A DNA stretch of 64,000 bases, taken from NCBI GenBank assembly GCA_030018495.1, contig JASEFS010000002.1:75359-139358 (forward strand). The letters run 5' to 3'. The number at the start of each line of letters is the position of its first letter. Position 1 is the stretch's first letter. The notes under the pieces are model-generated. The model made no database searches and was not told the origin of the DNA. It saw nothing but the letters and a program-made list of their open reading frames with translations. Shown here in pieces: positions 16,716-35,156 of this stretch. The stretch comes from Deltaproteobacteria bacterium (GTDB lineage Bacteria; Desulfobacterota; Desulfobaccia; Desulfobaccales; 0-14-0-80-60-11). The position numbers and the translations under genes were made by a program.

Positions 16716-16750
16716 TTTAAGCTATAAGCTTTAAGCCTTATGCTAAAGCG
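16716..16750. repeat. heptanucleotide tandem array (TTTAAGC-like, ~5 units)
   Basis: tttaagc tataagc tttaagc cttatgc taaagcg, directly upstream of the holB start codon. Confidence 0.8.
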
Positions 16751-16834
16751 ACTTTATTAGCCTTGCCTTGCCTCGTTTTAAGGTCAGTGTCTTTAATAAA
16801 AGCGCAAGCTAAGGCTCCATTTTTTCTGAAAAAA

Positions 16835-16855
16835 CCAAAAACCAAAAACCAAAAA
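16835..16855. repeat. heptanucleotide tandem array (CCAAAAA)x3
   Basis: ccaaaaa ccaaaaa ccaaaaa flanked by ctgaaa on both sides, ~20 nt downstream of the guaA stop. Confidence 0.85.
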
Positions 16856-16875
16856 TCTGAAAGCTGACAGCGTTT

Positions 16876-18426
16876 TCACTCCCATTCAATAGTTGCAGGT
16901 GGCTTGGACGAGATATCCAAAACCACCCGGTTCACCCGCTTCACTTCGTTGATGATGCGGTTGGCCAAGCGACCCAGAAATTCATGGGGCAGCTTGCTCC
17001 AGTCCGCGGTCATGGCGTCGGTGGAGTCCACGATGCGCAGCGCAATGACGTGCTCATAGGTGCGCTCGTCGCCCATGACCCCCACGGTCTTGATTGGCAG
17101 GAGCACTGCAAAGGCCTGCCAGACCTGGCGGTAGTAGCCGGCCCGCTGCATTTCCTCCATGACGATGGCGTCCGCGTCCCGCAAAATCGCCAAGCGCTCC
17201 CGGGTGACTTCGCCCAGGATACGGATGGCCAGGCCCGGTCCGGGAAAGGGGTGCCGCCAGACCAGGCTGTCGGGCAGGCCCAGCTCCCGGCCCACCTCCC
17301 GCACTTCGTCCTTGAAGAGCTCCCGCAGGGGCTCCAGGAGCTTTAAGGGCATGACTTCGGGCAGGCCCCCGACGTTGTGGTGGGTCTTGATGGTGGCCGA
17401 AGGGCCTTTGAAGGACACGCTTTCGATGACGTCAGGGTAGAGCGTCCCTTGGGCCAGGTATTTCACTCCGCCGATCTTTTCGGCGGCCGCCGCGAACTGG
17501 TTGATAAACTCGTGGCCGATGCGTTTGCGCTTCTCCTCCGGGTCTTCCACCCCTTTGAGCAGGTCCAGGAAACTGTCCGTGGCGTCCACGTACACCAGGT
17601 TCAGGTGGGCATGCTCCCGGAACAGGTGCACCACTTCCTCGGCCTCGCCTTTGCGCAGCACGCCGTTGTTCACAAAGATGCAGGTGAGGCGGTCGCCGAT
17701 GGCCCGGTGCACCAGGACCGCGGTCACCGACGAGTCCACTCCGCCGGAGAGGGCGCAGATCACCCGGTCCTCGGGTCCCACCTGCTCCCTGATGCTTTGC
17801 GTGGTGGCCTCGATAAAAGAGCGCATGGTCCACAGCCCCTTGAGGCCGCAAATGCGGAAGAGGAAGTTGCTCAAGACCTCCCGGCCGTGCGGGGTGTGCT
17901 TGACTTCGGGATGAAATTGCACCCCGTAGAAGCGACGCTCCCGGTGCCTGATGGCGCCTACCGGGCAGGCGTCGCTGGAGCCGATAATATCAAAGCCCGG
18001 CGGCGCCTCTTCCACCATATCGCCGTGGCTCATCCACACAGTCTCCTCATTTTTGAGGCCGTGGAAAAGATCGTCAAAATTGTGAATGGTGAAGGTTTTG
18101 CGGCCGTATTCCCGGGACGCGGCCGGCACCACTTTGCCGCCCAAAAGGTGGCTCAGAAGCTGGATGCCGTAACAGATGCCCAGGACCGGTACGCCCAGCT
18201 CCAGGACCGCGGGATCAAGCAAGGGAGCGCCGTCTTCATAAACGCTCCGGGGGCCGCCCGACAGGATTATGCCCTTGGGGGCGAATTCCCGGATTTTGTC
18301 CAGGGGCATGAGAAAGGGATGGATTTCGCAATATACTTTCAGTTCCCGCACCCGGCGGGCGATGAGCTGGGTGTACTGCGATCCGAAGTCAAGGATGAGA
18401 ATTTTTTCCGCGTGAGGGTCGAACAT
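16876..18426 (-). CDS. guaA: GMP synthase (glutamine-hydrolysing)
   Basis: N-terminal GATase ([20 protein letters not shown]), PP-loop SGGVDSSV and a C-terminal ...PPATIEWE. Confidence 0.95.
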
Positions 18427-18788
18427 CAGCCAAGCCCCTGAATTTACAAATTGTTTAATTGCTTTGATTATAGCCGATAGAAGGAGGAAAAAGCAATCGG
18501 CCGGCGGAGAATGATGGCAGGGCTGCTCGCGCCCGTGAGACTGTCCTTTCCAATGGTAATAGAAAGTTTATCAGAACGCACAGGTTTCAAGAAAAAAGGC
18601 TTTTAGCACAGCAGGAGGGCTATGCCATCCGGGGTCTTCTTGTCGCCAGGAGGCCTGTGGTGCGAAATGCTCACCCTGAAGCACAAAAGGGTCAATCGAG
18701 AATAGACTGACGGAGATGCCGCTCAAGGGTCAGGAGCCGAGTTCCATTCCCATAAGAACAAGCCTTGGCCCCTGACCCTGCCCCTGAC

Positions 18789-19802
18789 TCAACCAGGCTG
18801 GGTGATAGCTGAAAGTTTCCAGTCGTTGGTCCCTATGGCGCGGGTGAAAGTCCAATATTCCTCAAATTTGACGGGTTCGGTCTTGCTGCCCGAGATCACT
18901 TCCCCGGTCTTGTCGTTGACCAAGTAGTCCAGCAGGTTGGCGTAAACCCGCACGGTAATGTAGTCCGAGCCCTGTTCCTGCCAGGCTTCGGTGATATCCA
19001 CAGAGCGGACCGCGATATTGTCCATGCGGTTGATCACGCCTTCGGCCCGCAAGCGGTCGGCATCATCCTGCAGAACCTGGAACATATTTTCGGTCAGTTC
19101 TTCTTTCATGGGAGACAGGTCCCGGTTGGCCCAGGCCCCCTGCACCCGGAAAAAGAAGTCCAGCACTTGATCAGGGAACCTGGTTTCATCAAAAGATGGG
19201 TCCATCATCTTGATGTGAGTGAGCCCTTCTGCCAAGTCGTCATGATCGGCTGCAGGCGGTATTTCATAGTAGGGCGGCGCCTGGCGTCCGGGCTGGTAGT
19301 TGACAGGTTCAAGGCTGCTGCTCTCCAGGGAGGGTCCCTCTGCCACCGCCGCTTCCCGCTTCCTTCGGAGGAACGCATAGATCATGTAAGCGATGCCGGC
19401 CAAAAGAAGAATATCCAGAAGGCCGATATTCCATCCCCCTGCGGCGCCCTGGCCGGCATGGGCCGCAGGACCGCCGAACAGGCTCCGGAACAACATGCCG
19501 CCCGCCAGGCCTCCCAACAAACCAGCACCGAAAGTCCGCCACATGCTGCCGCCGGGCTGCCCTGGAGCACCTTGCGCCGCCGCGCCGGGGGCCGGGGAGC
19601 CGGGAGTAACAGCCGGTTTGGTCGGCTGCGTGGGTCTGGGCGCAGAGTATTGTTTGGGCGCGGAAAATGTCCTTGAACCCCGGCTGCCAAAAGACCCCCC
19701 ACGGCCGAGCCTCGCCTCGGCATCCGCGGGAAACCACCATACTCCTAATAAAATGAGACATAAAACAATCAAACCGTTTTTTCGCCATGTATTTCCCAGC
19801 AT
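18789..19802 (-). CDS. Tim44-like domain membrane protein
   Basis: ORF 18789..19883; the likely start is MLGNTWRKNGLIVLCLILLG at 19802. A Gly/Pro-rich linker, a TM helix and a C-terminal Tim44-like domain (FDETRF...WTFTR...WKLSAI). Confidence 0.65.
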   Translation of the reverse strand: MLGNTWRKNGLIVLCLILLGVWWFPADAEARLGRGGSFGSRGSRTFSAPKQYSAPRPTQPTKPAVTPGSPAPGAAAQGAPGQPGGSMWRTFGAGLLGGLAGGMLFRSLFGGPAAHAGQGAAGGWNIGLLDILLLAGIAYMIYAFLRRKREAAVAEGPSLESSSLEPVNYQPGRQAPPYYEIPPAADHDDLAEGLTHIKMMDPSFDETRFPDQVLDFFFRVQGAWANRDLSPMKEELTENMFQVLQDDADRLRAEGVINRMDNIAVRSVDITEAWQEQGSDYITVRVYANLLDYLVNDKTGEVISGSKTEPVKFEEYWTFTRAIGTNDWKLSAITQPG

Positions 19803-19804
19803 TT

Positions 19805-20569: not shown

Positions 20570-20680
20570 TAACCGCTCCCTGGAAGCCGAAGTTCGTCCG
20601 GCGTGAAGTTTCTTATCCCCTTGCCGTTATTCTTGGGCTTTTTACACTGAAAACGGCCGGCCGGGAACTGAAAATGGAAA

Positions 20681-20707
20681 GGGTCATCCGTCTTGAGCAG
20701 ATGACCC
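20681..20707 (-). terminator. candidate intrinsic terminator after htpX
   Basis: GGGTCATC...GATGACCC inverted repeat about 40 nt past the htpX stop. On the minus strand it is followed by TTTCCATTTT. Confidence 0.45.
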
Positions 20708-20747
20708 TCCGGAAATTATCAGAAGTTATTTTCCTTGAGCCCGAAAT

Positions 20748-21602: not shown

Positions 21603-21707
21603 AAGTCAACTCCCTTCAGAGGAAGGAACTCGACCTCCTTTCTCATCTTCTGAGTTTTTCATTAGACGACCTCTCCGCTTAAATAGTAAAGATTAGCGGG
21701 AACTTTG

Positions 21708-22526
21708 TCAACAAAATCCGGTCTTCGCCCCGTCGGGGCCGGGGGCCTTAAGTAAAAGAAAATACTCCTGATTGCCCTTGGGGCCCTGAAGCGGCGAGGG
21801 GAAGGCCGGGCTTGCCTCAAACCCTATATCCATGGCGGCCCGGGCCACTTTTTCCACGGCCTCTCTTTGCAATACCGGGTCCCGCACCACTCCCCCTTTC
21901 CCTACCTTGCCCTTGCCCACTTCGAACTGGGGCTTGACCAGGGCCAGGATGAGGCCGCCGGGAGCCAGAAATTCCATAATCCTGGGGATTACCAAAGTCA
22001 GCGAAATAAAGGATAAATCCAGGGTGGCCAAGTCGATGGGTTCCGTTACCGCCTCTTTGGGGAGCAGGCGGATGTTGGTGCGCTCCAGCACCACCACCCG
22101 TGGGTCCTGACGCAGGCTCTGGTCAAGCTGGCCGTAGCCCACGTCCACGGCGTACACCCTGGCCGCGCCCCGAAGAAGCAGCACCTGGGTAAAGCCGCCG
22201 GTCGAAGCCCCGGCGTCCAGACAGACCTTGCCCTGCACGTCCACCCCGAAGTGGTCCAGCGCGGGAGAGAGCTTCTCGCCCCCCCGGCTGACGAAGGCCT
22301 GGGCCGGCTTGAGGGTGATTTCCGCGTCCGCGGCCACCAGGGCACCCGCCTTGGTCACCGGCAGGCCGTCCACCAGCACCCGCCCGGCCAGAATGAGGGC
22401 CTGGGCCTTGGCGCGGCTGTCGGCCAGGCCGTGGGTAAGCAAAAGCTGATCCAGGCGAGTTTTTTGGGGTTTTTGGTTTTTGGTTTTTGGTTGGTGGTTC
22501 AAAAAATGACAAAAAATAGTCAGCAA
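21708..22526 (-). CDS. tlyA: TlyA-family rRNA 2'-O-methyltransferase
   Basis: S4 domain (RLDQLLLTHGLADSRAKAQALILAGRVLVDG) plus FtsJ-type SAM motif LDAGASTGGFTQVLL. The start is uncertain: only TTG codons at 22526 or 22502. The first ~20 codons are encoded by a heptamer repeat. Confidence 0.85.
   Translation of the reverse strand: MLTIFCHFLNHQPKTKNQKPQKTRLDQLLLTHGLADSRAKAQALILAGRVLVDGLPVTKAGALVAADAEITLKPAQAFVSRGGEKLSPALDHFGVDVQGKVCLDAGASTGGFTQVLLLRGAARVYAVDVGYGQLDQSLRQDPRVVVLERTNIRLLPKEAVTEPIDLATLDLSFISLTLVIPRIMEFLAPGGLILALVKPQFEVGKGKVGKGGVVRDPVLQREAVEKVARAAMDIGFEASPAFPSPLQGPKGNQEYFLLLKAPGPDGAKTGFC
22461..22497. repeat. heptanucleotide tandem array (TTTTTGG, the reverse complement of CCAAAAA; ~5 units)
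   Basis: tttttgg ggtttttgg tttttgg tttttgg ttggtgg. Lies at the tlyA 5' end and the left edge of the R-M cassette. Confidence 0.85.
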
Positions 22527-22550
22527 GTTATTTCCATTTATGTTCTTAAT

Positions 22551-23162
22551 TCAAGGTGCAATGCCAATTAGTACTAAAGGAACCGCCGGAACGCCCCGAC
22601 CTTGTCTGACGACATTGTAAAGCTCCCCCTCGTAATATGCGATGCCAGAGCTCATCTGTGATTGCAGGAATTTGACAGGCAGAATTTCTATACCTACATC
22701 AATATAGTCACCCACAAAAAATGCAAGGTGTTTTACAAAAAGATCATAGGCCACAAAAGAATATTTACCAAATTGTACTTCAACAGCAACACGGTCTTTT
22801 ACAAAGTCTGTTTGGTTATAACTGAAAATTGGCAATTCTCCTGCTTCCTCGATCTCTTTTTTCTGTTCTTCTGCTGACAAAGTGAGCGTTTTCCGAATCA
22901 ATTTTTCGCTTTTTGTAACCCAATATTTAACCCTGCTTTCATGCCAACCATTGGAACGCAATAGCCTTGCAAATGTTTTGTTTAATCCTATTGGGCTATA
23001 AAGTAGTTTACCACTCATTTTTTTTTCTTTAGATACCTTAGTCTTACACACCTCTGCGTCCACCGATGCGACCACTTCTTGAATTTCTTGCCATAAATTT
23101 GGTTTGTGAACTAATAAAAATTCCAAACCGTTTAAATGGGAGTAGGTTTCAACGATCTTCAT
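22551..23162 (-). CDS. type II restriction endonuclease, BglII/BamHI-fold (BglII-like EVQ active site)
   Basis: 203 aa in an AT-rich gene. TDFVKDRVAVEVQFGKYSF aligns, from my memory of R.BglII, with DIDFGKRDTLVEVQFSNYPF (the D, E and Q positions). The C-terminal PLVLIGI resembles BglII PIRLVGLI. Overlaps the upstream methyltransferase by 4 nt. Confidence 0.65.
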   Translation of the reverse strand: MKIVETYSHLNGLEFLLVHKPNLWQEIQEVVASVDAEVCKTKVSKEKKMSGKLLYSPIGLNKTFARLLRSNGWHESRVKYWVTKSEKLIRKTLTLSAEEQKKEIEEAGELPIFSYNQTDFVKDRVAVEVQFGKYSFVAYDLFVKHLAFFVGDYIDVGIEILPVKFLQSQMSSGIAYYEGELYNVVRQGRGVPAVPLVLIGIAP

Positions 23163-24106
23163 TTAGTCTGATGGTCATCAAAATATTCAATTAATTTTAG
23201 CTGCTTATCTTCTTGCGGATTACTCCATGGTGAAATTTTTAAACTATTTCCTGCTTCTTTGGGATCATAGATGGGTTTATCCATTGGGCGGGTTCTTAGC
23301 GTTCCATCAAGCTCTTCCTTAATTCTTTTTCTTGCCAACTCAACATATCTCTCAACAGTCTCTGCGCCAGCTCCACGACGTTTATGACGAATAGCCGCAA
23401 TTATTGATGTACCGGTACCCAAGAATGGATCCAATACCCAATCTCCCTCCTTGGTCATTGAAAGGACAAGGCGCTCAATAAGTTCAACCGGAAACTGGCA
23501 CGGATGATCTGTTTTTTCTACATGGTTGCACTTGACATTAGGAATATTCCACAAATCGCCGGGATTTTTTCCTAAAGGATTGCATGAATACTTTCCTGCA
23601 TTTGGTCCTTTAAAGTATTTTTTTCCTGGATATTTCTGCGGTACTCTGATCGGGTCCAGGTTAAAAAAGTATTCATCCGATTTTGTGAACCAAATTATCG
23701 TCTCATAACGCCCTGAAAAGCGGCGGCTACAATGAAGACCATGTTCGAAATGCCATATTACCCGATTTCGCATCTTAAGGCCAAAATTTGTAAATATTGG
23801 ATATAGCACTGTGTCAAGTGGGATAATCGACCCCTTTTCAACATAGTTTCCCACTTGCCAACATATACTTCCTAGGGGTGATAAGCAACGGACACATTCC
23901 TTTATTACATTATATTGTTGATTAAAATATAATTCTAATTTAAGCCGCTTTTCATATTCCTTACCGATGTTATAAGGAGGTGATGTAACAATTAGTTGTA
24001 TGGAATCGTTGGGTATGGTTCTTAATAGATCAAGGCAGTCACCAAAGTAGACAACAATATGCTCTGATAGAGAGAAATTCTCTACTATTTTTTTGTTAGC
24101 AAACAT
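23159..24106 (-). CDS. beta-class DNA methyltransferase, probably N4-cytosine (SPPY)
   Basis: Motif IV IVTSPPYNIG precedes motif I VLDPFLGTGTS, which is the beta-class order. S-P-P-Y is typical of m4C enzymes such as M.BamHI and M.BglII. AT-rich like the endonuclease gene. Confidence 0.8.
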   Translation of the reverse strand: MFANKKIVENFSLSEHIVVYFGDCLDLLRTIPNDSIQLIVTSPPYNIGKEYEKRLKLELYFNQQYNVIKECVRCLSPLGSICWQVGNYVEKGSIIPLDTVLYPIFTNFGLKMRNRVIWHFEHGLHCSRRFSGRYETIIWFTKSDEYFFNLDPIRVPQKYPGKKYFKGPNAGKYSCNPLGKNPGDLWNIPNVKCNHVEKTDHPCQFPVELIERLVLSMTKEGDWVLDPFLGTGTSIIAAIRHKRRGAGAETVERYVELARKRIKEELDGTLRTRPMDKPIYDPKEAGNSLKISPWSNPQEDKQLKLIEYFDDHQTK

Positions 24107-24206
24107 TTAAAACCTTACCTTTTAATCCACCTTAGCACTTTCTACTCCCATACCATATGTTCCCAACCACATCAATGGTGGGAAATGCCCACCCTACATT
24201 TTCTCT

Positions 24207-24264
24207 GGCCACTGGCCACTGGCCACTGACCACTGGCCACTGGTCACTAATCCCTGATCCCTGA
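24207..24264. repeat. heptanucleotide tandem arrays (GGCCACT)x6 followed by (TCCCTGA)x2
   Basis: ggccact ggccact ggccact gaccact ggccact ggtcact aa tccctga tccctga. Lies immediately downstream of the dxs stop and at the right edge of the R-M cassette. Confidence 0.9.
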
Positions 24265-24267
24265 CCC

Positions 24268-26238
24268 CTATCCCTTAAAGCTTCCCCAAATAACCTTCTG
24301 CTCCCGGGCAGGCTGCTCCAGGATTTCCAAGGCGCCTTTCAGGATGCCCTTGGCGTCCAGGCCGTATTTTTTCCGGAGGAGGTCCGGGGCGCCGTGCTCC
24401 ACGAATTGGTCGGGGACGGCCAGGCGTTTCACCGGCACCAGGAGCCCGTGGTCGGCCAATAGCTCCAGCACCGCGCTGCCGAAGCCCCCCTGGGCCACGT
24501 TTTCCTCCACCGTGAGAACCCGGCCCCGCTTGGCGGCCAGGTTCAAAATCAGGCCCTCATCCAGAGGTTTGATAAAGCGGGCGTTCACCACCGTGGCCTG
24601 GAAGCCCTGGTTTTCCAGTTCCCTGGCGGCCTCCAGGGAGGGATACACCGAGGCCCCGACGGCCAGAATCAGCAGGTCCTCCCCCTCCCGGAGCACTTCG
24701 GCCCGGCCGATGGGAATCTTGTGCAGCACGGGGCTGAAATTGACGCCCACTCCCCGGCCCCGGGGGTAGCGCAAGGCAATGGGTCCGGGATAATCCACCG
24801 CGGTGTAGAGCATGTGCCTCAGCTCGTCCTCGTCCTTGGGAGCCATGAGCACCATGTTGGGCAAGTGTCTGAGGTAGGAGAGGTCGAACAGGCCCTGGTG
24901 GGTTTCGCCGTCTTCGCCCACCATGCCGCCCCGGTCCAGGGCCAGCACCACCGGCAGGTTCTGGAGGCAGACGTCGTGGAGCACCTGGTCGTAGGCCCGC
25001 TGGAGGAAGGTGGAATAAATGGCGGCCACCGGCCGCATGCCCTCCAGGGCCAGGCCCGCCGCAAAGGTGACCGCGTGCTGCTCGCAGATGCCCACGTCAT
25101 AAAAGCGGTCCGGGAACTTGGCCCGGAAGTCCACGAGCCCCGTGCCGTCGGGCATGGCCGCGGTGATGGCCACGATTTTGCGGTTTTCCTGGGCCAGCTC
25201 CACCAGGGTGTCGCCGAATACCGCGGTATAGGACGGCACCTCGCTGACGCTCTTTTGGGCCACGCCGGTGTCCGGGTCGAATTTCCCCAGACCGTGGAAG
25301 CTGGTGGGGTCGGTTTCCGCGGGCCGGTAGCCTTTGCCCTTGGTGGTGATGACGTGCACCAAAACCGGGCCGGTCAAATTTTTGATGTTGGTGAAGGTCT
25401 CCAGCAGGTGGTCGAAGCGGTGGCCGTTCAAGGGACCGACGTAGTTGAATTTCAGCGCCTCAAAGAGCATGCCGGGCGTGAAAAAGGCCTTGAGGGACTC
25501 CTCGCTTTTTTTGGCCAGAGCCAGGAGGTCCTCGCCGATGCCCGGAAAGGACTTGAGCAGATATTCCACCTGCTTTTTGAGATACACCATGGTGCGGCCG
25601 GTGAGCTTGCGGCTCAGAAACGACGACATGGCCCCCACGTTGGGGGCGATGGACATGCCGTTGTCATTCAAGACGACGATGAGGTCCTTGTGCAGGTCGC
25701 CGGCGTTGTTCAGGGCCTCCAGGGCGATGCCCGCGGTGAGCGCGCCGTCGCCGATGACCGCGATAACCCGGCCCCGCTCCCGCTTCAGGCAGCGGCCGCA
25801 GGCCATGCCTAAGGCCGCGGAAATGGAAGTGGAGCTGTGGCCGGTGTCGAACGCGTCGTAGGGGCTTTCGGCCCGTTTGGGGAAGCCGCTGATGCCGCCG
25901 TACTGGCGCAGGGTGTGAAAGCGCTCCTGGCGGCCGGTGAGGAGCTTGTGGGCGTAAGCCTGGTGGCCGACGTCCCAGACGATCTTGTCTCTGGGGGAGT
26001 CAAAAATATAGTGCAGGGCGATGGTAAGCTCCACCACGCCCAGGCTGGGGGCCAGATGCCCGCCGGTCTTGGCCACCGTGGCGATGATTTTTTCGCGAAT
26101 TTCCTGGGCCACCTGGGGCAGGAACTCCGGCGGCAGCTTTTTCAGGTCCGCGGGGTTGCCGATCTTGGCCAGCAAGCCGCGACGTTCCGGCTCGGTTCGA
26201 GTAGTTTGGCGGTCGTCCATGTCTCTCCTCCCCCTCAT
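24268..26238 (-). CDS. dxs: 1-deoxy-D-xylulose-5-phosphate synthase
   Basis: [38 protein letters not shown] and the TPP motif IGDGALTAG...NDN. The start is either the ATG at 26238 (TAATG overlap with the ispA stop) or the ATG at 26220. Confidence 0.95.
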
Positions 26239-27157: not shown

Positions 27158-27255
27158 AACCACAAAGACCCAAAGGACACCAAGAGGCGTTAAGAATCCT
27201 TTTCTCTTTTTGGCATGCCAAAAAGAGAACTTTGTGATCTTTGTGTCTTTGTGGT
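27158..27255. repeat. nested palindrome (12-bp outer arms around a perfect 28-bp palindrome)
   Basis: Outer arm aaccacaaagac (27158-27169) pairs with gtctttgtggtt (27244-27255). The centre ttctctttttggca|tgccaaaaagagaa (27202-27229) is a perfect palindrome. Lies in the xseB-ispA spacer. Confidence 0.85.
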
Positions 27256-27276
27256 TCAATCTTATGCCCCGCACCC

Positions 27277-27328
27277 GGCAGTCAGCAGTCAGCAAATATC
27301 TGGCCACTGGCCACTGACCACTGGCCAC
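27277..27328. repeat. heptanucleotide tandem arrays (GCAGTCA)x2 then (GGCCACT)x4
   Basis: gcagtca gcagtca gca aatatct ggccact ggccact gaccact ggccact. Abuts the xseB stop codon. Confidence 0.9.
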
Positions 27329-27330
27329 TA

Positions 27331-27582
27331 CTACCCCTCCCCTTCCTCTTCCGGGAAAGGCTTGGTAAAAAACCTGCCGGCATTGTCCTTGAGCAAGAGC
27401 TCCACCCGGCGCTCCACTTCGTCTAGCTTGCCGTGGCAAAAGCGCACCAGGCCCACACCTTCCTCAAAGGCCTTGAGGGCTTCCTCCAGGTTCAGGTTGC
27501 CGTGCTCCAGGGCCTCCAGCACCTCTTCCAGGCGCTTTAGGGCATCTTCAAATTTTTGTTCTGGCTGTTCGTTTTTTGTCAT
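27331..27582 (-). CDS. xseB: exodeoxyribonuclease VII small subunit
   Basis: 83 aa with FEDALKRLEEVLEALEHGNLNLEEALKAFEEG, typical of XseB. Lies in the xseA-xseB-ispA-dxs context. Confidence 0.9.
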   Translation of the reverse strand: MTKNEQPEQKFEDALKRLEEVLEALEHGNLNLEEALKAFEEGVGLVRFCHGKLDEVERRVELLLKDNAGRFFTKPFPEEEGEG

Positions 27583-27690
27583 GAGTAATGCCGGGTTTCA
27601 AATAGGGCGCGCCGTGCACGCCGCTTTGAGGCGGCCAAGAGGCGCGCTATATTATTACTTTAATAATCGAATCTTAAATTACTCTTAAAC

Positions 27691-27718
27691 GAAAACCGAA
27701 AACTGAAAACCGAAAACC
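27691..27718. repeat. heptanucleotide tandem array (GAAAACC/GAAAACT)x4
   Basis: gaaaacc gaaaact gaaaacc gaaaacc, ending 4 nt from the xseA stop. Confidence 0.9.
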
Positions 27719-27722
27719 GTCT

Positions 27723-29060
27723 TTATTCCCCTGCCTCCAGCACCCGGCAATCCATCCGCCCCTTCGCCACCTGCACCCGGACCTCGGCGCCGGGAGGGAT
27801 GGCCAGGGCGTCCCGGATGATGGTGCCCTCCGGCAGTTTCGTGGCCACGGCGTAGCCCCGCTGCAGGATGGACATGGGGTCAAGCTTGGCCAGGTGGCTG
27901 GCGCAATAGTCCAGGTGGCGGCGGCGCTGGCCGAGATTCTGCTGCCAGGAGCGCAGCAGCCGCTGGCCGGACTGGTCCAGGCGCTGGCGGGCCGGGATGA
28001 CATTTCTGCCCGGGCTCAGCAAAAACAACCGGGAGCCGGCCAGACGCACCTCCCGGCGCCGCTCCGCCAGGCAGCGCCTGACGCGGCGGGCCAGGGTCTC
28101 GCCCCGCTCATCCACTCGCAGGCGCAAATCCACCACCTGCCGCCGCATGTCCGGCAGCCGGCGGGCCACCTGGGCCAGATGGCGGCGCTCGCCCTCCAGG
28201 TGCCGGGTCCAACCCCGGTACAGCGACGCGGCCAAGCGGTACAGGCGCCTGGTCAATTCAGCCTTGTCGGGCGCCACCAATTCCACGGCATGGCTGGGGG
28301 TGGCCGCCCGCACGTCCGCCACAAAATCCGCGATGGTGTAATCCACCTCGTGGCCCACCGCGGAGACCACCGGCAGGTTCGAGCGGTAAATGGCCCGGGC
28401 GACGATTTCCTCGTTGAATGGCCACAAGTCTTCCAGCGACCCGCCGCCCCGGGCTAATACTATGACCTCGATGCCCGGATAAGCGTTAAGCTCGTCCAGG
28501 GCCCGGGCGATTTCCCCCCCGGCCTCCGCGCCCTGCACCTTGACCGGATAAATCAGCACTTCAATGTTGGAGTGGCGCTGCTTGAGCAAGCGCAAAAAAT
28601 CCCGCACCACCGCGCCGGTGGGCGAAGTGACCAGGGCCAGGCGCCGGGGCAGGTAAGGCAGGGGCTTTTTATGGGCCGGGTCGAAAAGGCCCTCCGCGGC
28701 CAGCCGCGTCTTCAAAGCCTCGAAGGCCTGGGCCAGCGCGCCCAACCCCAGAGGCTCCAGATAATCCACGATTAACTGATATTCGCCCCTGAGCTCCCAC
28801 ACCGTGAGGCGCCCCCGGCAGAGCACCTTGTTGCCGTCCTGGGGCTTGTGCCGCATATACTGGTGGTTGCCTTTAAAGAGCACGGCCCGCAGCTGCGCGC
28901 CTTCATCCTTCAAGGTGAAATAGATGTGGCCGGAGGCGGCCTGACGCAGGTTGGACACCTCGCCGCTGACCCAAACAATGGCGAACTGGGTCTCGAGGCG
29001 CTCCCGGATTTCCCGGGTGAGACTCGTAACCGTATAGATGTGGGGTAAATCGTTGGCCAT
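27723..29060 (-). CDS. xseA: exodeoxyribonuclease VII large subunit
   Basis: ORF 27723..29138; the likely start is MANDLPHIYTVTSLTREIRERLE at 29060. OB-fold N-terminus plus a catalytic core (GGGSLEDLWPFNEE). Confidence 0.9.
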   Translation of the reverse strand: MANDLPHIYTVTSLTREIRERLETQFAIVWVSGEVSNLRQAASGHIYFTLKDEGAQLRAVLFKGNHQYMRHKPQDGNKVLCRGRLTVWELRGEYQLIVDYLEPLGLGALAQAFEALKTRLAAEGLFDPAHKKPLPYLPRRLALVTSPTGAVVRDFLRLLKQRHSNIEVLIYPVKVQGAEAGGEIARALDELNAYPGIEVIVLARGGGSLEDLWPFNEEIVARAIYRSNLPVVSAVGHEVDYTIADFVADVRAATPSHAVELVAPDKAELTRRLYRLAASLYRGWTRHLEGERRHLAQVARRLPDMRRQVVDLRLRVDERGETLARRVRRCLAERRREVRLAGSRLFLLSPGRNVIPARQRLDQSGQRLLRSWQQNLGQRRRHLDYCASHLAKLDPMSILQRGYAVATKLPEGTIIRDALAIPPGAEVRVQVAKGRMDCRVLEAGE

Positions 29061-29286
29061 GCTGAATAATTTAACTGCAACTATAACACAACTCCGATGG
29101 CAATCTAAGGAAATTCTTCGGGAATTGCTCCGGGACACCTTGGACCTATATACTTGATTCCTATATATTTCATACTTAACGTGTAGTTTAAAGTAACTCC
29201 TGCCGCAAGAGGCCGGCCTGACATCGCCGTTTTTACTTCAATGTATTTAAAACTCATCCATGCCGAATATTAGATAGGAGTTGAAA

Positions 29287-30717
29287 ATGAACCCGATAAA
29301 GCGGAAGCTGAGGCCCGGAGCTTTGGTGGTTCTGCTCTTGCAGACAATTCTGGTGGTGGCGCTGACCAACAGGGCGCAAGCGGCGCGCGAGGACGTGGCC
29401 ATGTTCTACGAAGAACTGGCCCCTTACGGCAATTGGGTGGACTACGGCAAATACGGCCCGGTGTGGTATCCAACCAAAGGGGTGTCGGAAAACTGGCGGC
29501 CTTATCTGGACGGCCGCTGGCAGCCCTCTGACGCCGGCTGGGTGTTCGAAACCACGGAACCCTGGGGCTGGGCCACCTACCACTACGGCAACTGGATGCC
29601 CACCGAAGATTACGGCTGGGTGTGGGCGCCGGGCAGCACCTGGTACCCAAGCACGGCAGCCTGGCGCACCAGCGATGATTATATCGGCTGGGCCCCCATC
29701 CCGCCGCCCAATTATGAGCCCCCGCCGGCCTACTATCCTGCGGGCGGGTATTATCCAGGCGCCCCGGTCCTGAGCCTCATAACCGCGCCCTTCTGGATCT
29801 TTGCCAGGGCTGCGAGCTTTCTGTTGGGATTCGGGCAGCCCTATGCCCCCGGCTATTCCTATTACAACTGCGGCTGTCTGGCGCCCTTCGGCACCATTCC
29901 CACGATATATCCCCGCACCGCTCTCTTAACCAACTATTACTATCCCAGTTACGCCCCTTACGCTTATTATGTTTACGGGCCGTCGTATCCTTTTATTTCC
30001 CGGGTCTGCAGAGTCCCCATTGTTCGCATCCATAACTTTGTCAGACGGAAAAAATTCAGGGATTTCCGTTATGTGGTCCCGCCCCACTACGTTCTGAATC
30101 GGCGGCCCTACCTGAGGCGGGCGATTCCGGACGCGGTGCTGGAAGGCCGTGACTTCACGGTTCGCCGGGTGCGGGATGTGCGGGTGGTCGAACCGCGTCT
30201 GGTGCGGCCCGATGTGGTTCGGCCGCCACGGGACCTGCCCGAGGTGCCGCGGATCGAGGGGGCCAGGCCGGAGCGCCTGAGACCTGCGGTCCGCCCGGAA
30301 GCTTTACGTCCGGGTACGGCTGAGCGGCGAGCCCCGGAGCGGGCCGCTCCGGAAAGGGTGCTGCCGCAGCGGCTAAGGCCCGCAAGGCCGGAGGCGGAAG
30401 CCAGGCGGGGCGTGCTGCTTCCGCCCCAGGCAGTGCCGGATTCCCGGGATATGCAGGACCAATTGCGCCGGGAACGCCGGATAGAAAGGCGGCAAGTCCC
30501 GCAAGTTCAGCAGCGCCGCTTTCAGCGGGAGGAACGGCAGCTCCGTCAACAGGAAATTTTCCGTACGCCCAGGGCCAGGCAGCCCGAAGCTGTGCGCCCC
30601 AGGATTCAGCGGCAGCCCCAGCCCCGCCGGGCTCCACAAATCCGCCAGCCGCGCCCTGCGCCTTCCCGGACGCCTGGACGCTCCTTTCAAGGGCTGCAAC
30701 CCCAGCGGGGACGATAA
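29287..30717 (+). CDS. exported protein with a Trp/Tyr/Gly-rich N-terminal repeat domain and an Arg/Pro-rich tail
   Basis: AGGAG at ~29275 precedes the ATG at 29287. Signal peptide MNPIKRKLRPGALVVLLLQTILVVALTNRAQA. Repeats of the YGxW/GWxW type (PYGNWVDYGKYGPVWYP, EPWGWATYHYGNWMPTEDYGWVWAPGSTWYP). The last ~200 aa are low-complexity R/P/E/Q. Confidence 0.6.
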   Translation: MNPIKRKLRPGALVVLLLQTILVVALTNRAQAAREDVAMFYEELAPYGNWVDYGKYGPVWYPTKGVSENWRPYLDGRWQPSDAGWVFETTEPWGWATYHYGNWMPTEDYGWVWAPGSTWYPSTAAWRTSDDYIGWAPIPPPNYEPPPAYYPAGGYYPGAPVLSLITAPFWIFARAASFLLGFGQPYAPGYSYYNCGCLAPFGTIPTIYPRTALLTNYYYPSYAPYAYYVYGPSYPFISRVCRVPIVRIHNFVRRKKFRDFRYVVPPHYVLNRRPYLRRAIPDAVLEGRDFTVRRVRDVRVVEPRLVRPDVVRPPRDLPEVPRIEGARPERLRPAVRPEALRPGTAERRAPERAAPERVLPQRLRPARPEAEARRGVLLPPQAVPDSRDMQDQLRRERRIERRQVPQVQQRRFQREERQLRQQEIFRTPRARQPEAVRPRIQRQPQPRRAPQIRQPRPAPSRTPGRSFQGLQPQRGR

Positions 30718-30822
30718 TGGCAGGCGGGAGGTCGGCTCCTAACCTAAGTGCCGCGCTTTATAAACTGTAGCGTATTCATTAAACCGGCTTGGGCAAAACG
30801 GGTTTATTCCCCCTCACCCTGC

Positions 30823-30849
30823 CCCTCTCCCCCGAAATGGGGGAGAGGG
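30823..30849. repeat. GC-rich hairpin CCCTCTCCCCC-GAAAT-GGGGGAGAGGG
   Basis: Perfect 11-bp inverted repeat in the repeat-dense spacer 30718-31098. Confidence 0.8.
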
Positions 30850-30883
30850 AAAAGAAAAAAATTCGGCATGAAGCCGTTGCGAT

Positions 30884-30918
30884 TGCCACTGGCCACTGAC
30901 CACTGCCCACTGACCACT
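30884..30918. repeat. heptanucleotide tandem array (GSCCACT)x5
   Basis: tgccact ggccact gaccact gcccact gaccact. Confidence 0.9.
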
Positions 30919-31098
30919 GTGTTTATGGTGATCTACCTTTCTCCCCTTTGCTGGCAGGGAGGATCTCGAAGCCGCATTGCTTAAGCCTGCATCCCCCTTT
31001 CACATCGCTTGCGGGGGGAGAGGGCTGGGGTGAGGGGGGCCGACAAGAAACACTACCATGTTTAAGAAATTGCTGCCGAGGCAGTCGGCCCGCGGCAT

Positions 31099-32292
31099 TT
31101 AAAAAACTTTCACCCGGCCGGCATAAAGGGCGAGGCCGAACCAGGCCCAGTTGTTGGCATAATAGTTGTCCGGGCTGACGAAGTACGCCTCGCCGGGTTT
31201 ATCGGTGTAGAAAGAAAGAATTTTCTGCGCCAATCGGTCGGCAAATTGGCGGTCGCCGGCGGCCAAAGCCGCGGCCAGGACTCCGGCATAGATAACCGGG
31301 CTCTCGTAATCCGCCAGGGGCCGGCCCTCATAGCTGTAAACCGCGGCCAGCCTGCCCTTTGTCTGCCATTCCCTCTTAAAGAATGGGAGAAAGCTTTGGC
31401 TCAGCAGCCGGCCCGCCTGTTCGTCTCCGAACCACAAGCGGTCCAGGGCCACGCGCCAGGGCAGGCGCACCGCCTCCCAGCCGAAAGCGGTATCCCGGTC
31501 CGGCGCCGGGTAAAAATTGCCGAAGGCATCCACCCGCACCCAGTCGGGGAAAAGGCCGACCCCTGTCATGCTGCCCACGCTTTGGGCAAGGCGTTCCAGG
31601 AAAGGATAAGCTGCGGTATGGAGGTCTTGCCAGCGCCCGTTCAGCCCTGCGGCGGCAAAAAGCCGATAAGCCGGGGGAAAGAAATAAGATGAGTTGATTA
31701 AAAAAGGCGGAGCGGATTCATGCCAGTTGCCCGGAGCCAAAAGCAGCCCGCGGTCCGGCAGCCTCACGACTTCTTTGTTCAGGATGTCTTGGGCCGCGGC
31801 ACGGGCTTCGGAGGCGTAATCGGGGCAGGAAGGCGGCGGCCGCCAGCCCCGCCGGGAAGCCAGCCAGAGGGCCAGGGCATAGTCCAGGTCCGCGTCGGAT
31901 GCGGTGTTCCAATCCAGCACTCCCCAGGTTCCGTCGGGTTTCCGGCCCCAATGCCAAGCCAGCAGGTGGTCCCCCCGGCTTTCCAGGCGGCAGAGGTTGG
32001 CCCGGGTCCAGGCATAAACTTTGGCGAAGCGGGCCTCATCTCCGGCCCATAAGGCCCTCATCAGGGCGTAGGCCTGGGCTTCCGAAATGCTCTCCCCGCC
32101 GCGCTCGGCCAGAATCACCCGCCCCTCGGGGGAGATGTAGCGCCGGGCATAGTTTTCCCAGGAGGCCTGCAAAATGCGGTCAAGGTCGCCGACATCGCCC
32201 GAACCGCAGGCCGGCAGCCCCAGCCACAGACAAAGCCATACCCCCGCCAGCCGGCAAAGGCTGCCAACAAATTCCGGCTTCAGCCGTTCCAT
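31099..32292 (-). CDS. glycoside hydrolase family 8 endoglucanase-like lipoprotein
   Basis: ORF 31099..32454; the likely start is MERLKPEFVGSLCRLAGVWLCLWLGLPACG at 32292, which has a lipobox. GH8-like motifs SEAQAYALMRAL and ASDADLDYALALWLA. Confidence 0.7.
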   Translation of the reverse strand: MERLKPEFVGSLCRLAGVWLCLWLGLPACGSGDVGDLDRILQASWENYARRYISPEGRVILAERGGESISEAQAYALMRALWAGDEARFAKVYAWTRANLCRLESRGDHLLAWHWGRKPDGTWGVLDWNTASDADLDYALALWLASRRGWRPPPSCPDYASEARAAAQDILNKEVVRLPDRGLLLAPGNWHESAPPFLINSSYFFPPAYRLFAAAGLNGRWQDLHTAAYPFLERLAQSVGSMTGVGLFPDWVRVDAFGNFYPAPDRDTAFGWEAVRLPWRVALDRLWFGDEQAGRLLSQSFLPFFKREWQTKGRLAAVYSYEGRPLADYESPVIYAGVLAAALAAGDRQFADRLAQKILSFYTDKPGEAYFVSPDNYYANNWAWFGLALYAGRVKVF

Positions 32293-32547
32293 TCTGCCAC
32301 CTTGTGCCTGTCCGTCCCGGCGAATTTGAAGCTCTGACGGAGAAGGGATTGTATCATGATATTTTGGCGGAGGTGAATACCAGAAATCTGCGAAAACCCC
32401 ATAAGCATCGCATTTCACCCGCAAAAAATCTTGACATTTGCCGGTATTAGTCATAAATATTTAGCTAATCAAACAAGTGCGGGCAGAGAGTTCTTGGCAA
32501 TAATCAACACGATCCGTGATTTTTAATTATTACCGTCTATCTTATGT

Positions 32548-32590
32548 GGCATCTGGGCGCTCCGTCGTGACCACCAAGATGCCTTTTTTA
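32548..32590 (+). promoter_or_regulatory. hairpin plus T-run in the thrS leader (candidate attenuator/operator)
   Basis: GGCATCT...AGATGCC stem followed by TTTTTTA, ending ~10 nt before the thrS ATG. No clear Shine-Dalgarno lies between them. Confidence 0.35.
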
Positions 32591-32600
32591 TTGAAACGTC

Positions 32601-34514
32601 ATGATTAACATTAACCTGGAAAACGGCCCCTCCGCGGAAGTGGAAGAGGGCCGCACTGTGGCCGAAATCCTCAAAGACCTGGGCGTGGGTACCGACCGCC
32701 AGATAGTGGCTGCCAAAGCGAACGGAGACCTGCTGGACCTGTCCGCTTCCCTTACGCGGGACTGCACCATCACTCCCATCGGGCTGGATACGCCTGAAGG
32801 CCTTGATATCCTGCGCCACAGCACCTCTCACGTCATGGCCGAAGCCGTGCGCACCCTTTTCCCGGGCGTCAAAATCGCCATCGGCCCGGCTATTGAAGCG
32901 GGCTTTTATTACGACTTCGACACCAAGGAACCCTTCACTCCGGAAGACCTGGCCCGCATCGAAGCCAAAATGGCGGAGCTGGTGGCCCGGGACCTGCCTT
33001 TCGTGCGGCAGGAGGTCCCCAAGGACGAGGCCCTGCGGCTTTTTAAGGAGGAAGGTGAGGATTATAAAGTAGAGCTGCTACAGGAAATCCCGCAGGACCG
33101 GGTCAGCCTTTACCGGCAGGGGGATTTCGTTGATCTGTGCCGGGGGCCGCATGTGCCTTCCACCGGCTGGCTCAAGGCCTTCAAGCTCACCGGCATTTCC
33201 GGGGCCTACTGGCGGGGCGACGAACGCAACGCCATGCTCCAGCGCATTTACGGCACCGCTTTCCCCACCAGGGAAGAGCTCGAAAGACACCTGGAGCTTA
33301 TCGAAGAGGCCAAGCGTCGGGACCACCGCAAGCTGGGCCGGGAGCTGGGCCTCTTCAGCATCGAGGATGAAGCCGGGGCGGGGCTGGTCATCTACCACCC
33401 CAAAGGGGCGCTGCTGCGCACTTTCATTGAAGATTTCGAGCGCCGGCAGCATTTGAAGCGGGGCTACCAGATAGTCATGGGTCCGCAGATGCTCAAGGCC
33501 GACTTGTGGGAACGCTCCGGCCACATGGAAAATTACCGGGAGCACATGTACTTCACCGAGGTCGAAGGCCAGATGTACGGCATCAAGCCCATGAACTGCG
33601 TGGCCCACATGCTCATCTACAAATCCCGGGTGCGGAGCTACCGGGAATTGCCCCTGCGCTTTTTTGAACTGGGCACGGTCCTGCGCCACGAGCGCTCCGG
33701 AGTGCTCCACGGCCTGACCAGGGTCCGGCAGTTCACCCAGGATGACGCCCACATCATTTGCACCCCCGAGCAGGTTGAAAGCGAAATCCTGGGCGTGCTG
33801 GACTTCGTCGCCGAAGTCATGGCCATCTTCGGATTTGAATACGAAGTGGAGCTCTCCACCCGGCCGGAGAAATCCATCGGCTCGGACGCGGATTGGGATT
33901 TGGCCACCAACGCCCTGATCGGCGCCCTGAATACCAAGGGCCTGCCGTACCACATTTGCGAGGGCGAAGGCGCGTTTTACGGGCCGAAAATCGATATCAA
34001 ACTCAAAGACGCGCTCCAGCGGCGCTGGCAGTGCGCCACCATTCAATGCGACTTCACTTTGCCCGAGCGCTTTGACCTGACCTATGTGGGCGCGGACGGC
34101 AACCGCCACCGTCCGGTGATGCTCCACCGGGTCATCCTGGGCTCCCTGGAACGCTTTCTAGGAGTCCTCATTGAACATTACGCCGGCGCTTTTCCCGTCT
34201 GGCTGGCCCCGGTCCAGGTCATACTTTTGCCCATCACCGACCGGGTGCATGCTTACGCCCAGGAAGTGGCGGATATGCTTATTGCTGAAGATTTGCGGGT
34301 GGAAGCCGACTTCCGTCCGGAAACCTTGCGGTATAAAATAAGAGAAGCGCAATTACAAAAAATTCCTTATATGGTTGTTATCGGGGATCGGGAGGCCGAG
34401 TCGCGCACCCTTTCACCCCGTTTGCGTGACGGCACGGAATTGAAAGGCCTGGCTATCGACGCCTTTGTGGCCCGGCTGCGTGAGGAAAGCCAGGTTCCAA
34501 CCCCCAAATCATAA
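32601..34514 (+). CDS. thrS: threonine--tRNA ligase
   Basis: TGS N-terminus, editing motif [11 protein letters not shown], class II core and anticodon-binding domain. 637 aa. Confidence 0.95.
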
Positions 34515-34540
34515 TTAAAATCCGCAGGAGGTAAACTGCC

Positions 34541-35050
34541 ATACAGAAACAGCGCGTGAGGGTCAATCAGCAGATCAGGGCCCCGGAAGTTCTGCTCATC
34601 GGGGCCGACGGCAAGAATGAGGGCGTAAAATCCATCAAAGAGGCCCTGGAATATGCGGCCGAAGCCAATATGGATCTGGTGGAGGTAGCCCCCCAGGCCA
34701 ATCCGCCGGTGTGCCGGATCATGGATTACGGCAAGTTCAAATATGAGCAGGCGAAAAAACAGCAGGAGGCCCGGCGCCGCCAAACCACCATCCAGGTGAA
34801 GGAAGTCAAATTCCGGCCCAAAATCGAACAGCACGACATGGAATTCAAGCTGAAAAATGTCCGCCGTTTTTTGGCCGACAACGACAAGGCCAAAATCACC
34901 ATGATCTTTCGCGGCCGGGAAATGGCGCACCAGGACCGGGGCTATGCCATCCTCCAGAGAATCGCGGAGGAGCTCGCCGACGTGGCCGTGGTGGAGCAGC
35001 CCCCCAAGCAGGAAGGCCGGACCCTTTCCATGATCGTGGCGCCCAAATGA
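34541..35050 (+). CDS. infC: translation initiation factor IF-3, probable non-canonical ATA start
   Basis: The track ORF starts at GTG 34556 (MRVNQQIRAPEVLLIGADG). The frame is open back to 34535, and an in-frame ATA at 34541 lies ~9 nt after AGGAGG (34526-34531). infC classically uses AUU/AUA-type starts. Confidence 0.85.
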   Translation: MQKQRVRVNQQIRAPEVLLIGADGKNEGVKSIKEALEYAAEANMDLVEVAPQANPPVCRIMDYGKFKYEQAKKQQEARRRQTTIQVKEVKFRPKIEQHDMEFKLKNVRRFLADNDKAKITMIFRGREMAHQDRGYAILQRIAEELADVAVVEQPPKQEGRTLSMIVAPK

Positions 35051-35156
35051 CAGTTTTCTGTTTACAGTTTTTAGTTTTCGGTTAAATTAATTAGATTGAT
35101 AGGAATCGGGAGCAGGAATTATTTTTTTTTGGCGCCACCGAAAACTGAAAACCGAG
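35051..35156. repeat. inverted pair of GAAAACY-family heptamer arrays in the infC-rpmI spacer
   Basis: cagtttt ctgttta cagtttt tagtttt cggtt (35051-35083) starts 1 nt after the infC stop. ccgaaaactgaaaaccgag (35138-35156) is its near-perfect reverse complement (16 of 17 over gttttYagttttcggt). Confidence 0.85.

Follow-up and report, generated by a model that had tools for sequence, protein, structure and literature searches.

Heptanucleotide arrays with stop-to-start polarity in housekeeping operons of a Desulfobaccales-related genome

We analysed a 64,000-nucleotide (nt) stretch of an uncultured Desulfobaccales-related metagenome-assembled genome (contig JASEFS010000002.1 of assembly GCA_030018495.1, positions 75,359 to 139,358; hereafter the window) and found 11 tandem arrays of 7-nt units in seven spacers between 16.7 and 35.2 kb. 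The arrays have a polarity relative to the adjoining genes: a G/U-rich array, often of the form (CAG-N4)n, lies 0–6 nt past the stop codon of the upstream gene on the coding strand, and its complement (N4-CTG or GAAAACY) ends 0–14 nt before the next start codon. Post-stop and pre-start arrays are predicted to be able to pair with each other. The phenomenon is real, statistically solid and odd, but it is not unprecedented, since tandem heptamers have been published by Mrazek and for Xanthomonas/Nostoc, Beggiatoaceae and Geobacter. From the position, polarity, pairing potential and persistence of the arrays we infer, with some hesitation and at less than even confidence, that they are intercistronic RNA elements resembling the REP sequences of enterobacteria, in which complementary heptad arms built by 7-nt slippage would bridge stop and start.

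The host is a relative of sulfate reducers whose nearest named relatives are Desulfobaccales and Desulfobacca, which agrees with the view, taken in an earlier reading of the letters and their open reading frames (ORFs), that the gene content is not cyanobacterial. Its xseA and holB products match proteins of an NCBI 'Deltaproteobacteria bacterium' genome at 100% identity, and the best species-representative genome match is contig L001 (80% Dxs identity). For comparison we used syntenic relatives at 80–88% protein identity (L082, L083, L084–86 and L087–91) and the more distant L001.

Period-7 arrays at gene ends in the window

Period 7 dominates over other repeat periods, in the window as well as in a wider sample. 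Exact arrays of at least ~2.4 copies occur five times at period 7 in the window against 0.1 expected from dinucleotide shuffles, with none in the window at periods 6 and 8–15, and across 81 sources arrays of at least three copies number 105 at period 7 versus 28, 23 and 23 at periods 6, 8 and 9. As in other long simple-sequence repeats, heptamers are in excess and arrays whose period is not a multiple of three are mostly noncoding: ten of the 11 are intergenic and one is coding (three units, 21 nt, in frame). Window arrays were called with Tandem Repeats Finder (TRF), which returned an array at every coordinate named in the earlier, sequence-only reading; the eight or more spacers counted there come down to seven.

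Five arrays begin 0–21 nt past stop codons (dxs, xseB, xseA, infC and guaA) and two end 9–10 nt ahead of start codons (holB and rpmI). The post-stop placement proposed in the sequence-only reading thus stood for the first five, at distances tighter than the 1–60 nt given there, and did not stand for holB and rpmI, whose arrays are pre-start. When period 7 was scored over the first 42 nt past the stop at gene 3′ ends in the window with a spacer of at least 35 nt, four ends reached at least 0.66 and infC reached 0.54.

The dxs stop is followed on the minus strand by two contiguous arrays, the first at 24250–24275 (TRF ATCCCTG ×3.9; unit GGGATCA / CAGGGAT) and the second at 24205–24248 (TRF CTGGCCA ×6.3; unit TGGCCAG / CAGTGGC). 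The stop itself (TAG, 24268–24270) lies inside the first degenerate unit, the transcript strand reading GGATAG GGGTCAG GGATCAG GGATTAG (TGRYCAG)6, and the two arrays together make up an unbroken run of ten YAG triplets spaced at period 7. In the same minus-strand operon, xseB is followed 1 nt past its TAG (27331–27333) by (AGTGGCC)4.3 at 27300–27330 (TRF 27300–27329, CTGGCCA ×4.3), and a second array in the xseB–ispA spacer, (TGCTGAC)2.4 at 27278–27294 (TRF GCAGTCA ×2.4), has CTG phase. The xseA array, (CGGTTTT)4.3 at 27690–27719 (minus strand; TRF CGAAAAC ×4.3), begins 3 nt past the TAA at 27723–27725. At guaA (minus strand, 16830–16870) the array reads CTGTCAG CTTTCAG ATTTTTG (GTTTTTG)3, of which TRF reports 16830–16855 as AAAAACC ×3.7; the distance from the TGA (16876–16878) is ~5–6 nt if the two degenerate units are included and 21 nt to the perfect array.

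The infC–rpmI spacer on the plus strand holds both kinds of array. Directly (0–1 nt) past the infC TGA, at 35051–35085, stands the 5′ arm, CAGTTTT CTGTTTA CAGTTTT TAGTTTT CGGTTAA, which TRF reports over 35050–35077 as period 14. The 3′ arm, ACC(GAAAACY)2GA (GAAAACY ×2.5; 35137–35155), ends 1 nt ahead of the Shine-Dalgarno sequence GAGG and 8–9 nt ahead of the rpmI ATG (35164). The other pre-start array, (AGCTTAW)n of ~4.4 units at 16714–16744 on the minus strand (TRF GCTTTAA), ends 10 nt before the holB ATG (16703). The convergent spacer between the DUF6600 and GH8 genes carries (CAGTGGN)5 at 30886–30919 (minus strand; TRF CCACTGA ×4.9), sense to GH8 and 180 nt past its stop.

The coding array is (AAAAACC)3.6 at 22468–22492 on the minus strand (TRF GGTTTTT ×3.6). 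It had been placed after the stop of a neighbouring endonuclease gene; instead it lies in frame, over 21 nt, in the N-terminal tail of tlyA, where it encodes QPKTKNQKPQK within a Lys/Pro/Gln linker, and its unit, reverse-complemented, gives the post-stop unit of guaA. The tlyA start (TTG-AAC-CAY) is kept in the window and in L001, and with all relatives homology sets in at residue 24. The claim that the repeats are not decayed coding sequence is right in general, and the argument offered for it, that a 7-nt period cannot be coding, fails this once. With rpmI and holB, tlyA makes up the arrays that end within a few nt of a start in forward orientation, most window arrays being post-stop.

Recurrence of the same units at distant loci, as first noticed from the letters, was borne out for three families: CCACTGR (24205, 27300 and 30886), GAAAACY (27690 and 35137, inverted at 35051), with 19 nt identical between 27695 and 35137, and CCAAAAA (16830, inverted at 22468). 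Outside the window the units occur again in relatives and in at least 120 contigs from metagenomes. There is no support for a CTGA/TCAG core common to all phyla, the top 4-mers of 104 arrays being heterogeneous. Two further candidates find little in the arrays. An all-frame backstop for ribosomes that read through the stop was rejected, because the post-stop units, read by eye, contain no stop codon in any frame. Ordinary terminators, already set aside in the sequence-only reading, do not explain the arrays, which lack canonical T-runs: a promoter and terminator scan gave no excess of terminator-like sites and no T-runs after arrays, and the single terminator-like hit inside an array (27301–27320) has a weak T-rich tail. 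Rfam models at gathering thresholds detected no known RNA family in the whole window.

Phasing at period 7 is most specific, within the clade, for the triplet CAG/CTG (12 runs, versus 0, 1 and 1 at periods 5, 8 and 10), and runs of at least four YAG triplets number nine at period 7 versus 0–1 at periods 5, 6, 8, 9 and 10. The four positions outside the YAG triplet vary within arrays, which holds for the CAG-type families only. Such phasing would suit an oligomeric protein that binds RNA or single-stranded DNA at repeated sites, each protomer reading one YAG triplet per 7 nt. HutP reads UAG-N4 repeats, and TRAP reads GAG/UAG repeats. The specific phasing at variable remaining positions, the ten consecutive YAG-N4 units past the dxs stop and a strand specificity relative to ORFs that fits an RNA ligand all speak for protein sites, and the candidate readers would be ribosomal protein S1, Csp or CsrA, which MacGregor proposed for TAACTGA repeats (PMC4679880). 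We nevertheless consider this explanation unlikely: several families (GGTTTTC, TTTTTGG, AGCTTAA) have no YAG, the variety of units in one genome would call for many readers or for one of very loose specificity, and strict inverted pairing is unnecessary for protein binding. No candidate protein was identified, no search for one having been made and the genome being covered over 64 kb only.

Several other repeats adjoin the arrays. A REP-like hairpin with a GTAG head, GTAGGGTGGGCATTTCCCACC (24176–24197, minus strand), lies directly 3′ of the dxs arrays as a neighbour and is not a heptad array; the form GTAGGGYGGGC....GCCCRCC occurs in the window and in L082 (12633, 15592 and 15637), and GC-rich hairpins of a similar kind stand after the genes whose ends are at 38113 and 38946. 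The ispA start is preceded at 27158–27256 (minus strand) by inverted octamer arrays of the form (CACAAAGA)n / (TCTTTGTG)n; these do not have period 7 and enclose a perfect 28-nt palindrome (27202–27229), and the repeat arms are hence not all heptamers. The array at 30886 is bracketed by a 25-nt inverted repeat (30809–30833 / 31014–31038; 88% complementary, 180 nt apart) of the type CCCCTCACCC..GGGGAGAGGG. Past the stop of the Tim44-like gene, the window at 18760–18788 reads GTCAGGGGCAGGGTCAGGGGCC, a quasi-periodic CAGGG repeat with 6–7 nt spacing and a TRF period of 6.

The genes flanking arrays are housekeeping genes, and array-bearing spacers fall in the conserved operons guaA–holB, xseA–xseB–ispA–dxs and infC–rpmI–rplT. 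By Pfam, which agreed with the gene names assigned in the sequence-only reading, the minus-strand genes are holB, guaA, a Tim44-like gene, a TPR gene, an M48 peptidase gene, tlyA, a low-GC BglII-type restriction-modification pair, dxs, ispA, xseB and xseA; beyond xseA lie DUF6600 (plus), GH8 (minus) and thrS-infC-rpmI-rplT (plus).

Polarity and pairing of the arrays

An exact search for (CAGTGGC)3 found it in at least 120 metagenome contigs, with GC contents of 0.39–0.76, and in six IMG/VR viral contigs (L092–L097); we found no description of a CAGTGGC array in the literature searched. The matches listed comprise 124 arrays, and all counts for this unit are given among them. When a stop was defined as one that closes an ORF of at least 100 codons within −12 to +10 nt upstream of the array, (CAGTGGC)n followed a stop in sense orientation 34 times and in antisense orientation seven times (P = 2.5e-5). 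At 0–3 nt the contrast was 18 versus 0 (P = 7.6e-6). A bias in the same direction was found at 80 unrelated genome loci, where the G-rich strand of period-7 arrays was sense and abutted a stop in 22 cases versus 7 (P = 0.008), and together these counts bear out the bias toward gene 3′ ends seen in the window. Phasing of the stop codon with the heptads was not supported, only ~7 of 34 junctions being in phase by eye, close to chance.

The partner arrays are just as one-sided. Of 97 arrays, 29 have an inverted partner within 200 nt on the downstream side and none has one upstream; these partners often run up to the start codon that follows. Where one arm of a pair abuts a stop (16 pairs), a long-ORF start lies within 18 nt of the other arm in ~10, and three pair junctions read '...CCACTG ATG'. 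Long-ORF starts within 14 nt were found for 16 arrays read as (GCCACTG)n versus four read as (CAGTGGC)n.

The CCACTGA unit family is common to different phyla, because the acidobacterial contig L052 (Pyrinomonadaceae) also has it: CCACTGA/AGTGGTC occurs there at three sites in 22 kb (5127, 18429 and 18631), next to CTACTGA arrays. Other loci of Desulfobacterota/Geomonas (L004 17786–18010, L018 5252–5560 and L019 5212–5650) carry higher-order repeats of alternating heptad arrays, with AGGATTA/AGGCGTC at a spacing of 138 nt and CGTTCAA/GAACGTT at one of 80–115 nt.

In the window, the infC and rpmI arms are predicted to form a 16-bp stem of −32.1 kcal/mol (z = −2.3), which is kept in the window, L082 and L083 despite loops of 56–130 nt. 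The xseB–ispA spacer of the window folds at −85.9 kcal/mol (z = −5.0), and in L083 sense and antisense arrays are predicted to form a stem of ~25 bp that starts just upstream of the stop codon and includes it (z = −3.9). Two of the units are self-complementary through their cores, TGGCCA and AAGCTT, and the array at 24205 is predicted to fold on itself at its TGGCCA palindromes. A stable stem-loop near an operon stop codon is accordingly predicted for paired arrays and not for solo GGTTTTC or TTTTTGG arrays.

A strict, strand-symmetric polarity (29 versus 0 among the matches listed) is also what the ends of a mobile element would show. Inverted arrays would then be the terminal inverted repeats of a miniature, non-autonomous element landing between stop and start, and solo arrays its decayed halves. 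This fits whole spacers made of arm, loop and arm, the gain of an infC-type module past xseA in one lineage with 19-nt identity to the rpmI arm, one assembly that breaks inside an array, and a patchy distribution across taxa. The junctions, however, have no target-site duplications and no conserved internal sequence, and loops differ between lineages; the AT-rich flank that the sequence-only reading saw as shared by GAAAACY arrays is not significantly similar (local alignment, P = 0.12); and orthologous arrays persist over long divergence. We checked a transposon-end origin at the insertion sequence copies that adjoin arrays in L082 and rejected it, the ends being ordinary and not heptads. No mobile-element machinery was found, and the mobile-element footprint suggested earlier is improbable.

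Foreign cassettes lie in the same spacers and are not flanked by arrays. The guaA–holB, xseA–xseB and dxs–tlyA spacers of relatives house small cassettes and look like cassette-insertion hot spots (L087 2311–3989; L083 7032–7628; L082 11400–12268; L001 8170–8730 and 11960–13290). The cassettes are an XhoI-type restriction-modification pair (L087), an NYN-domain gene (L083) and AT-rich ORFs, and those of L087 and L083 are not bounded by heptad arrays. In most relatives (L002–L008) dxs and tlyA are direct or near neighbours. The window has between them an inserted low-GC island (22551–24106; GC at third codon positions ~0.33), which encodes an N6/N4 DNA methylase and a BglII-type endonuclease and is flanked by heptad arrays on both sides.

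Persistence, turnover and a tentative reading

Relatives have arrays at the same stops, with altered copy number, order or unit. This persistence is notable because 4-fold degenerate sites of the flanking genes are only 67–70% identical between lineages. The infC post-stop element aligns over its first ~45 nt in four lineages and is nearly identical in L082, L083 and L084, and the rpmI arm is present in three lineages (window, L082 and L083). At the dxs stop, L082 has GGATAG + (TGGYCAG)3 + (GGRTCAG)2, which are the two units of the window in another order and number, followed as in the window by the REP-like hairpin, of which there are three GTAGGGYGGGC copies. At xseB, L083 reads CAGTAGC CAGTGGC CAGTGAC CAGTTAA across the stop, with the TAG inside the first unit and an inverted (TAACTGG)n thereafter (TAACTGG/TTACTGA ×5 upstream of ispA). 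TGCTGAC-type heptads stand ahead of ispA in three lineages, and TGCTGAC/ACTGCTG occurs in the L082 and L001 spacers.

The unit may change while the position is kept. At the guaA stop, L088 reads CAGAGAT CAGGCGT CAGGGGC CAGGTAA and L090 reads CAGGAGC CAGGTTC CAGGTGT, so that an array of TTTTTGG units in one lineage corresponds to one of CAGRNNN units in others. Ahead of holB, L088/L089 have an imperfect AGCTT-rich array (TRF consensus TAGCTTA, 81% matches; 83% holB identity), which is weak in L090.

At short range the arrays are stable. No copy-number change was seen among L084, L085 and L086, three samples of one strain that are 99.99% identical and have identical arrays, and the arrays of the window and of L081 are identical too. 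The arrays are thus not hypervariable contingency repeats, and the slippage-prone spacers proposed in the sequence-only reading show no hypervariable slippage between these strains. An exact-protein look-up with rplT led to the same genome in SRR23186779; those with dxs and xseB gave no match. The Logan short-read contig L081 (SRR23186779), 100% identical to window positions 27695–39637, ends inside the GAAAACY array, and several metagenome contigs, L100, L136 and L147 among them, have a (CAGTGGC)n array at an end; arrays appear to break assemblies.

We tentatively favour an RNA-level role, because a DNA-level process blind to reading frames would hardly yield strand-specific adjacency to stops and starts. 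A model is offered by the enterobacterial REP/BIME elements. These multicopy, stable stem-loops stand in operon spacers, in many cases no more than ~15 nt from a stop codon, stabilise upstream mRNA and can affect translation termination. The paired arrays resemble them as multicopy, predictedly stable stem-loops in operon spacers near stops. REPs are single imperfect palindromes with a GTAG/GTGG head and are tied to RAYT transposases, whereas the window arrays are tandem heptads, and a separate GTAG-headed hairpin adjoins those of dxs.

On this REP-like reading, the arrays would be transcribed within the operon mRNA and act as register-tolerant complementary stem arms, and the stem would loop out the spacer and set stop and start side by side. 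The first heptads would lie inside the footprint of the terminating ribosome, which may open the base of the stem beside the next start codon; their melting would make the start region of the following cistron accessible for translational coupling or re-initiation, and the re-formed stem may protect the upstream mRNA segment or attenuate read-through. As for origin, 7-nt replication slippage would make and resize the arrays, and hairpin-templated correction would keep the arms matched. Solo arrays would be half-elements or, with TGGCCA or AAGCTT cores, self-pairing units.

A good deal weighs against the REP-like reading: most arrays are solo, some units are unpairable, stems bear no G-U signature and lineage turnover is common. 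Among the matches listed, ~70% of the (CAGTGGC)n arrays stand without a partner in the surrounding 200 nt, as do those of xseA and dxs in the window, and GGTTTTC and TTTTTGG are among several units unable to self-pair. Across all units and taxa, pair polarity is only ~2:1 (25 versus 12) and pre-start adjacency has no strand bias (8 versus 9). The xseA–xseB and guaA–holB spacers of the window fold no better than shuffles (z = −0.5 and −1.3), and the infC–rpmI stem has only one compensatory pair. RNA-specific (G-U) strand asymmetry of the stems is absent, and no G-U signature of RNA-level selection is seen because stems are equally stable on both strands (8 versus 8). Close lineages also differ by gain and loss of arrays. 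That of xseA is present only in the window lineage and is absent after xseA in L082, L083, L084 and L001, L082 having CACCGAAAACCGAAAACC just ahead of xseB in its place; L084 has no rpmI arm and L001 neither the infC nor the rpmI array. For the related repeats of Xanthomonas, Rehm et al. found no regulatory role (PMC4692102).

Much of this would be expected if the arrays themselves did nothing. They would then be a neutral by-product of ~7-nt polymerase slippage in unconstrained spacers, as proposed by Mrazek, with deletion bias trimming the spacer until arrays touch a stop or start and purifying selection removing harmful orientations. Heptamers are in excess across many unrelated taxa, the unit turns over at the fixed guaA-stop position, and the differences in presence between close lineages, the stems without an RNA strand signature and the want of a function in Xanthomonas (PMC4692102) point the same way. 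Neutrality fits less well with the same units at several loci and in distant phyla (at least 120 contigs and the acidobacterial L052), with an infC element kept in four lineages together with its variant units, or with the constant copy number among the three near-identical strains, and it needs extra ad hoc filters to yield the 0–3 nt peak (18 versus 0) and the pair polarity (29 versus 0) among the matches listed. We regard it as rather unlikely.

A bolder form of the RNA-level reading is that inverted arrays are a widespread, so far unrecognised device for Shine-Dalgarno-independent re-initiation, in which a ribosome would be handed on across the looped-out spacer through a stem that runs from the stop codon to the next start ('...CCACTG ATG'). 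We think this doubtful. If true, it would be a prokaryotic counterpart of ribosome shunting, with heptad arms letting the stem re-form in several registers.

Relation to known heptamer repeats

The arrays belong to the known class of bacterial intergenic heptamer repeats, of which the STRR, GGGAATC and TAACTGA types are examples. The sequence-only reading knew one parallel, the STRR repeats, which in fact are joined by several published ones. These heptanucleotide repeats of heterocystous cyanobacteria, reportedly described by Mazel and co-workers in 1990, are said to have the units CCCCAGT, TTGGTCA and CAACAGT. Like the window arrays they are tandem heptamers in non-coding DNA, with several unit families per genome and different arrays often adjoining; the units of the window are not STRR units, and its host lies outside the cyanobacteria. 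We reject Rho-loading sites on the C-rich complement as a general explanation, because cyanobacteria abound in heptamer repeats and are not known to have Rho.

Later papers summarise the work of Mrazek (2007), in which heptamers came out as the commonest class of long simple repeats with 5–11 nt units in many prokaryotes and polymerase slippage was proposed (PMC4679880, PMC4692102). Geobacter metallireducens, like the host of the window from the former Deltaproteobacteria, has GGACCGG elements at 49 loci (four units each) and MTYCTGA elements at 16 (five units each). They were annotated as putative global regulator sites, with no analysis of their positions (Aklujkar et al. 2009, PMC2700814). 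Shared with the window are multicopy tandem heptamers (four or five) and class-3 MTYCTGA sites drawn as strand-switching pairs; the units differ, and GGACCGG elements also occur inside genes.

TAACTGA repeats have been described in marine Beggiatoaceae, cyanobacteria and Bacteroidetes, with 169 sets that mostly end 1 to a few nt before starts where ribosome-binding sites are rare (MacGregor 2015, PMC4679880). In both cases arrays, of 2–6 heptamers for TAACTGA, stand between genes of housekeeping operons, those for ribosomal proteins included, and their orientation is fixed to the adjacent ORF. The minority of window arrays that are pre-start end, like those of TAACTGA, a few nt ahead of the start codon, the latter often lacking a ribosome-binding site. 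Unlike the Beggiatoaceae repeats, which have one dominant, mostly pre-start unit, window arrays are mostly post-stop and of the complementary, CAG-phase type. TRF found no TAACTGA array in the window.

The nearest match in placement is the GGGAATC repeat of Xanthomonas (~185 per genome, 89–93% intergenic, mostly transcribed; Rehm et al. 2015, PMC4692102), which lies at a mean of 28 nt from the upstream ORF versus 160 nt from the next one and forms 70–75 convergent pairs (PMC4692102). The Xanthomonas/Nostoc repeats GGGAATC / GGGGA(C/T)T share with the window tandem heptamers, mostly of ~4 units, that are ~90% intergenic and nearer the upstream ORF end, with the G-rich strand coding downstream of genes and non-coding upstream and with frequent convergent inverted pairs. 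The window arrays fit both this strand rule and the convergent pairing. They differ in the several unrelated units that coexist, in a tighter stop adjacency (0–6 nt versus a mean of 28 nt), in belonging to another phylum and in one coding array.

GGGAATC repeats adopt a G-quadruplex / i-motif-type structure in vitro (PMC4692102), and non-B structure of the G-rich strand, or phase variation at contingency loci, could in principle account for the window arrays. The G-rich strand rule matches that of Rehm et al. (PMC4692102), and the dxs-stop unit GGGATCA resembles GGGAATC. It is, however, the only window unit that fits the G-quadruplex-type (GGGANTN)n, most others (CAGTGGC, GGTTTTC, AGCTTAA, TGCTGAC) having GG or no G-run. 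Phase-variable contingency repeats differ in that the window arrays flank housekeeping genes, not surface or virulence genes, and show no change of length between near-identical strains. Both possibilities seem very remote to us.

Heptamer repeats in bacterial spacers date in the literature from 1990, and their excess from 2007. With our results the range of such arrays takes in Desulfobaccales and, by way of the (CAGTGGC)n unit, many genomes from soil and sediment. In practice, such arrays appear to break short-read assemblies and can mislead gene-start calls. The value of the finding lies in a sharpened polarity rule, a cross-phylum unit family and testable, conserved operon junctions. For CAGTGGC the rule is that the G-rich array stands 0–3 nt past a stop and the complement at the next start, the reverse order never occurring among the matches listed. 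The conserved essential operon junctions infC–rpmI and xseB–ispA–dxs suit direct tests of coupling, mRNA stability and protein binding.

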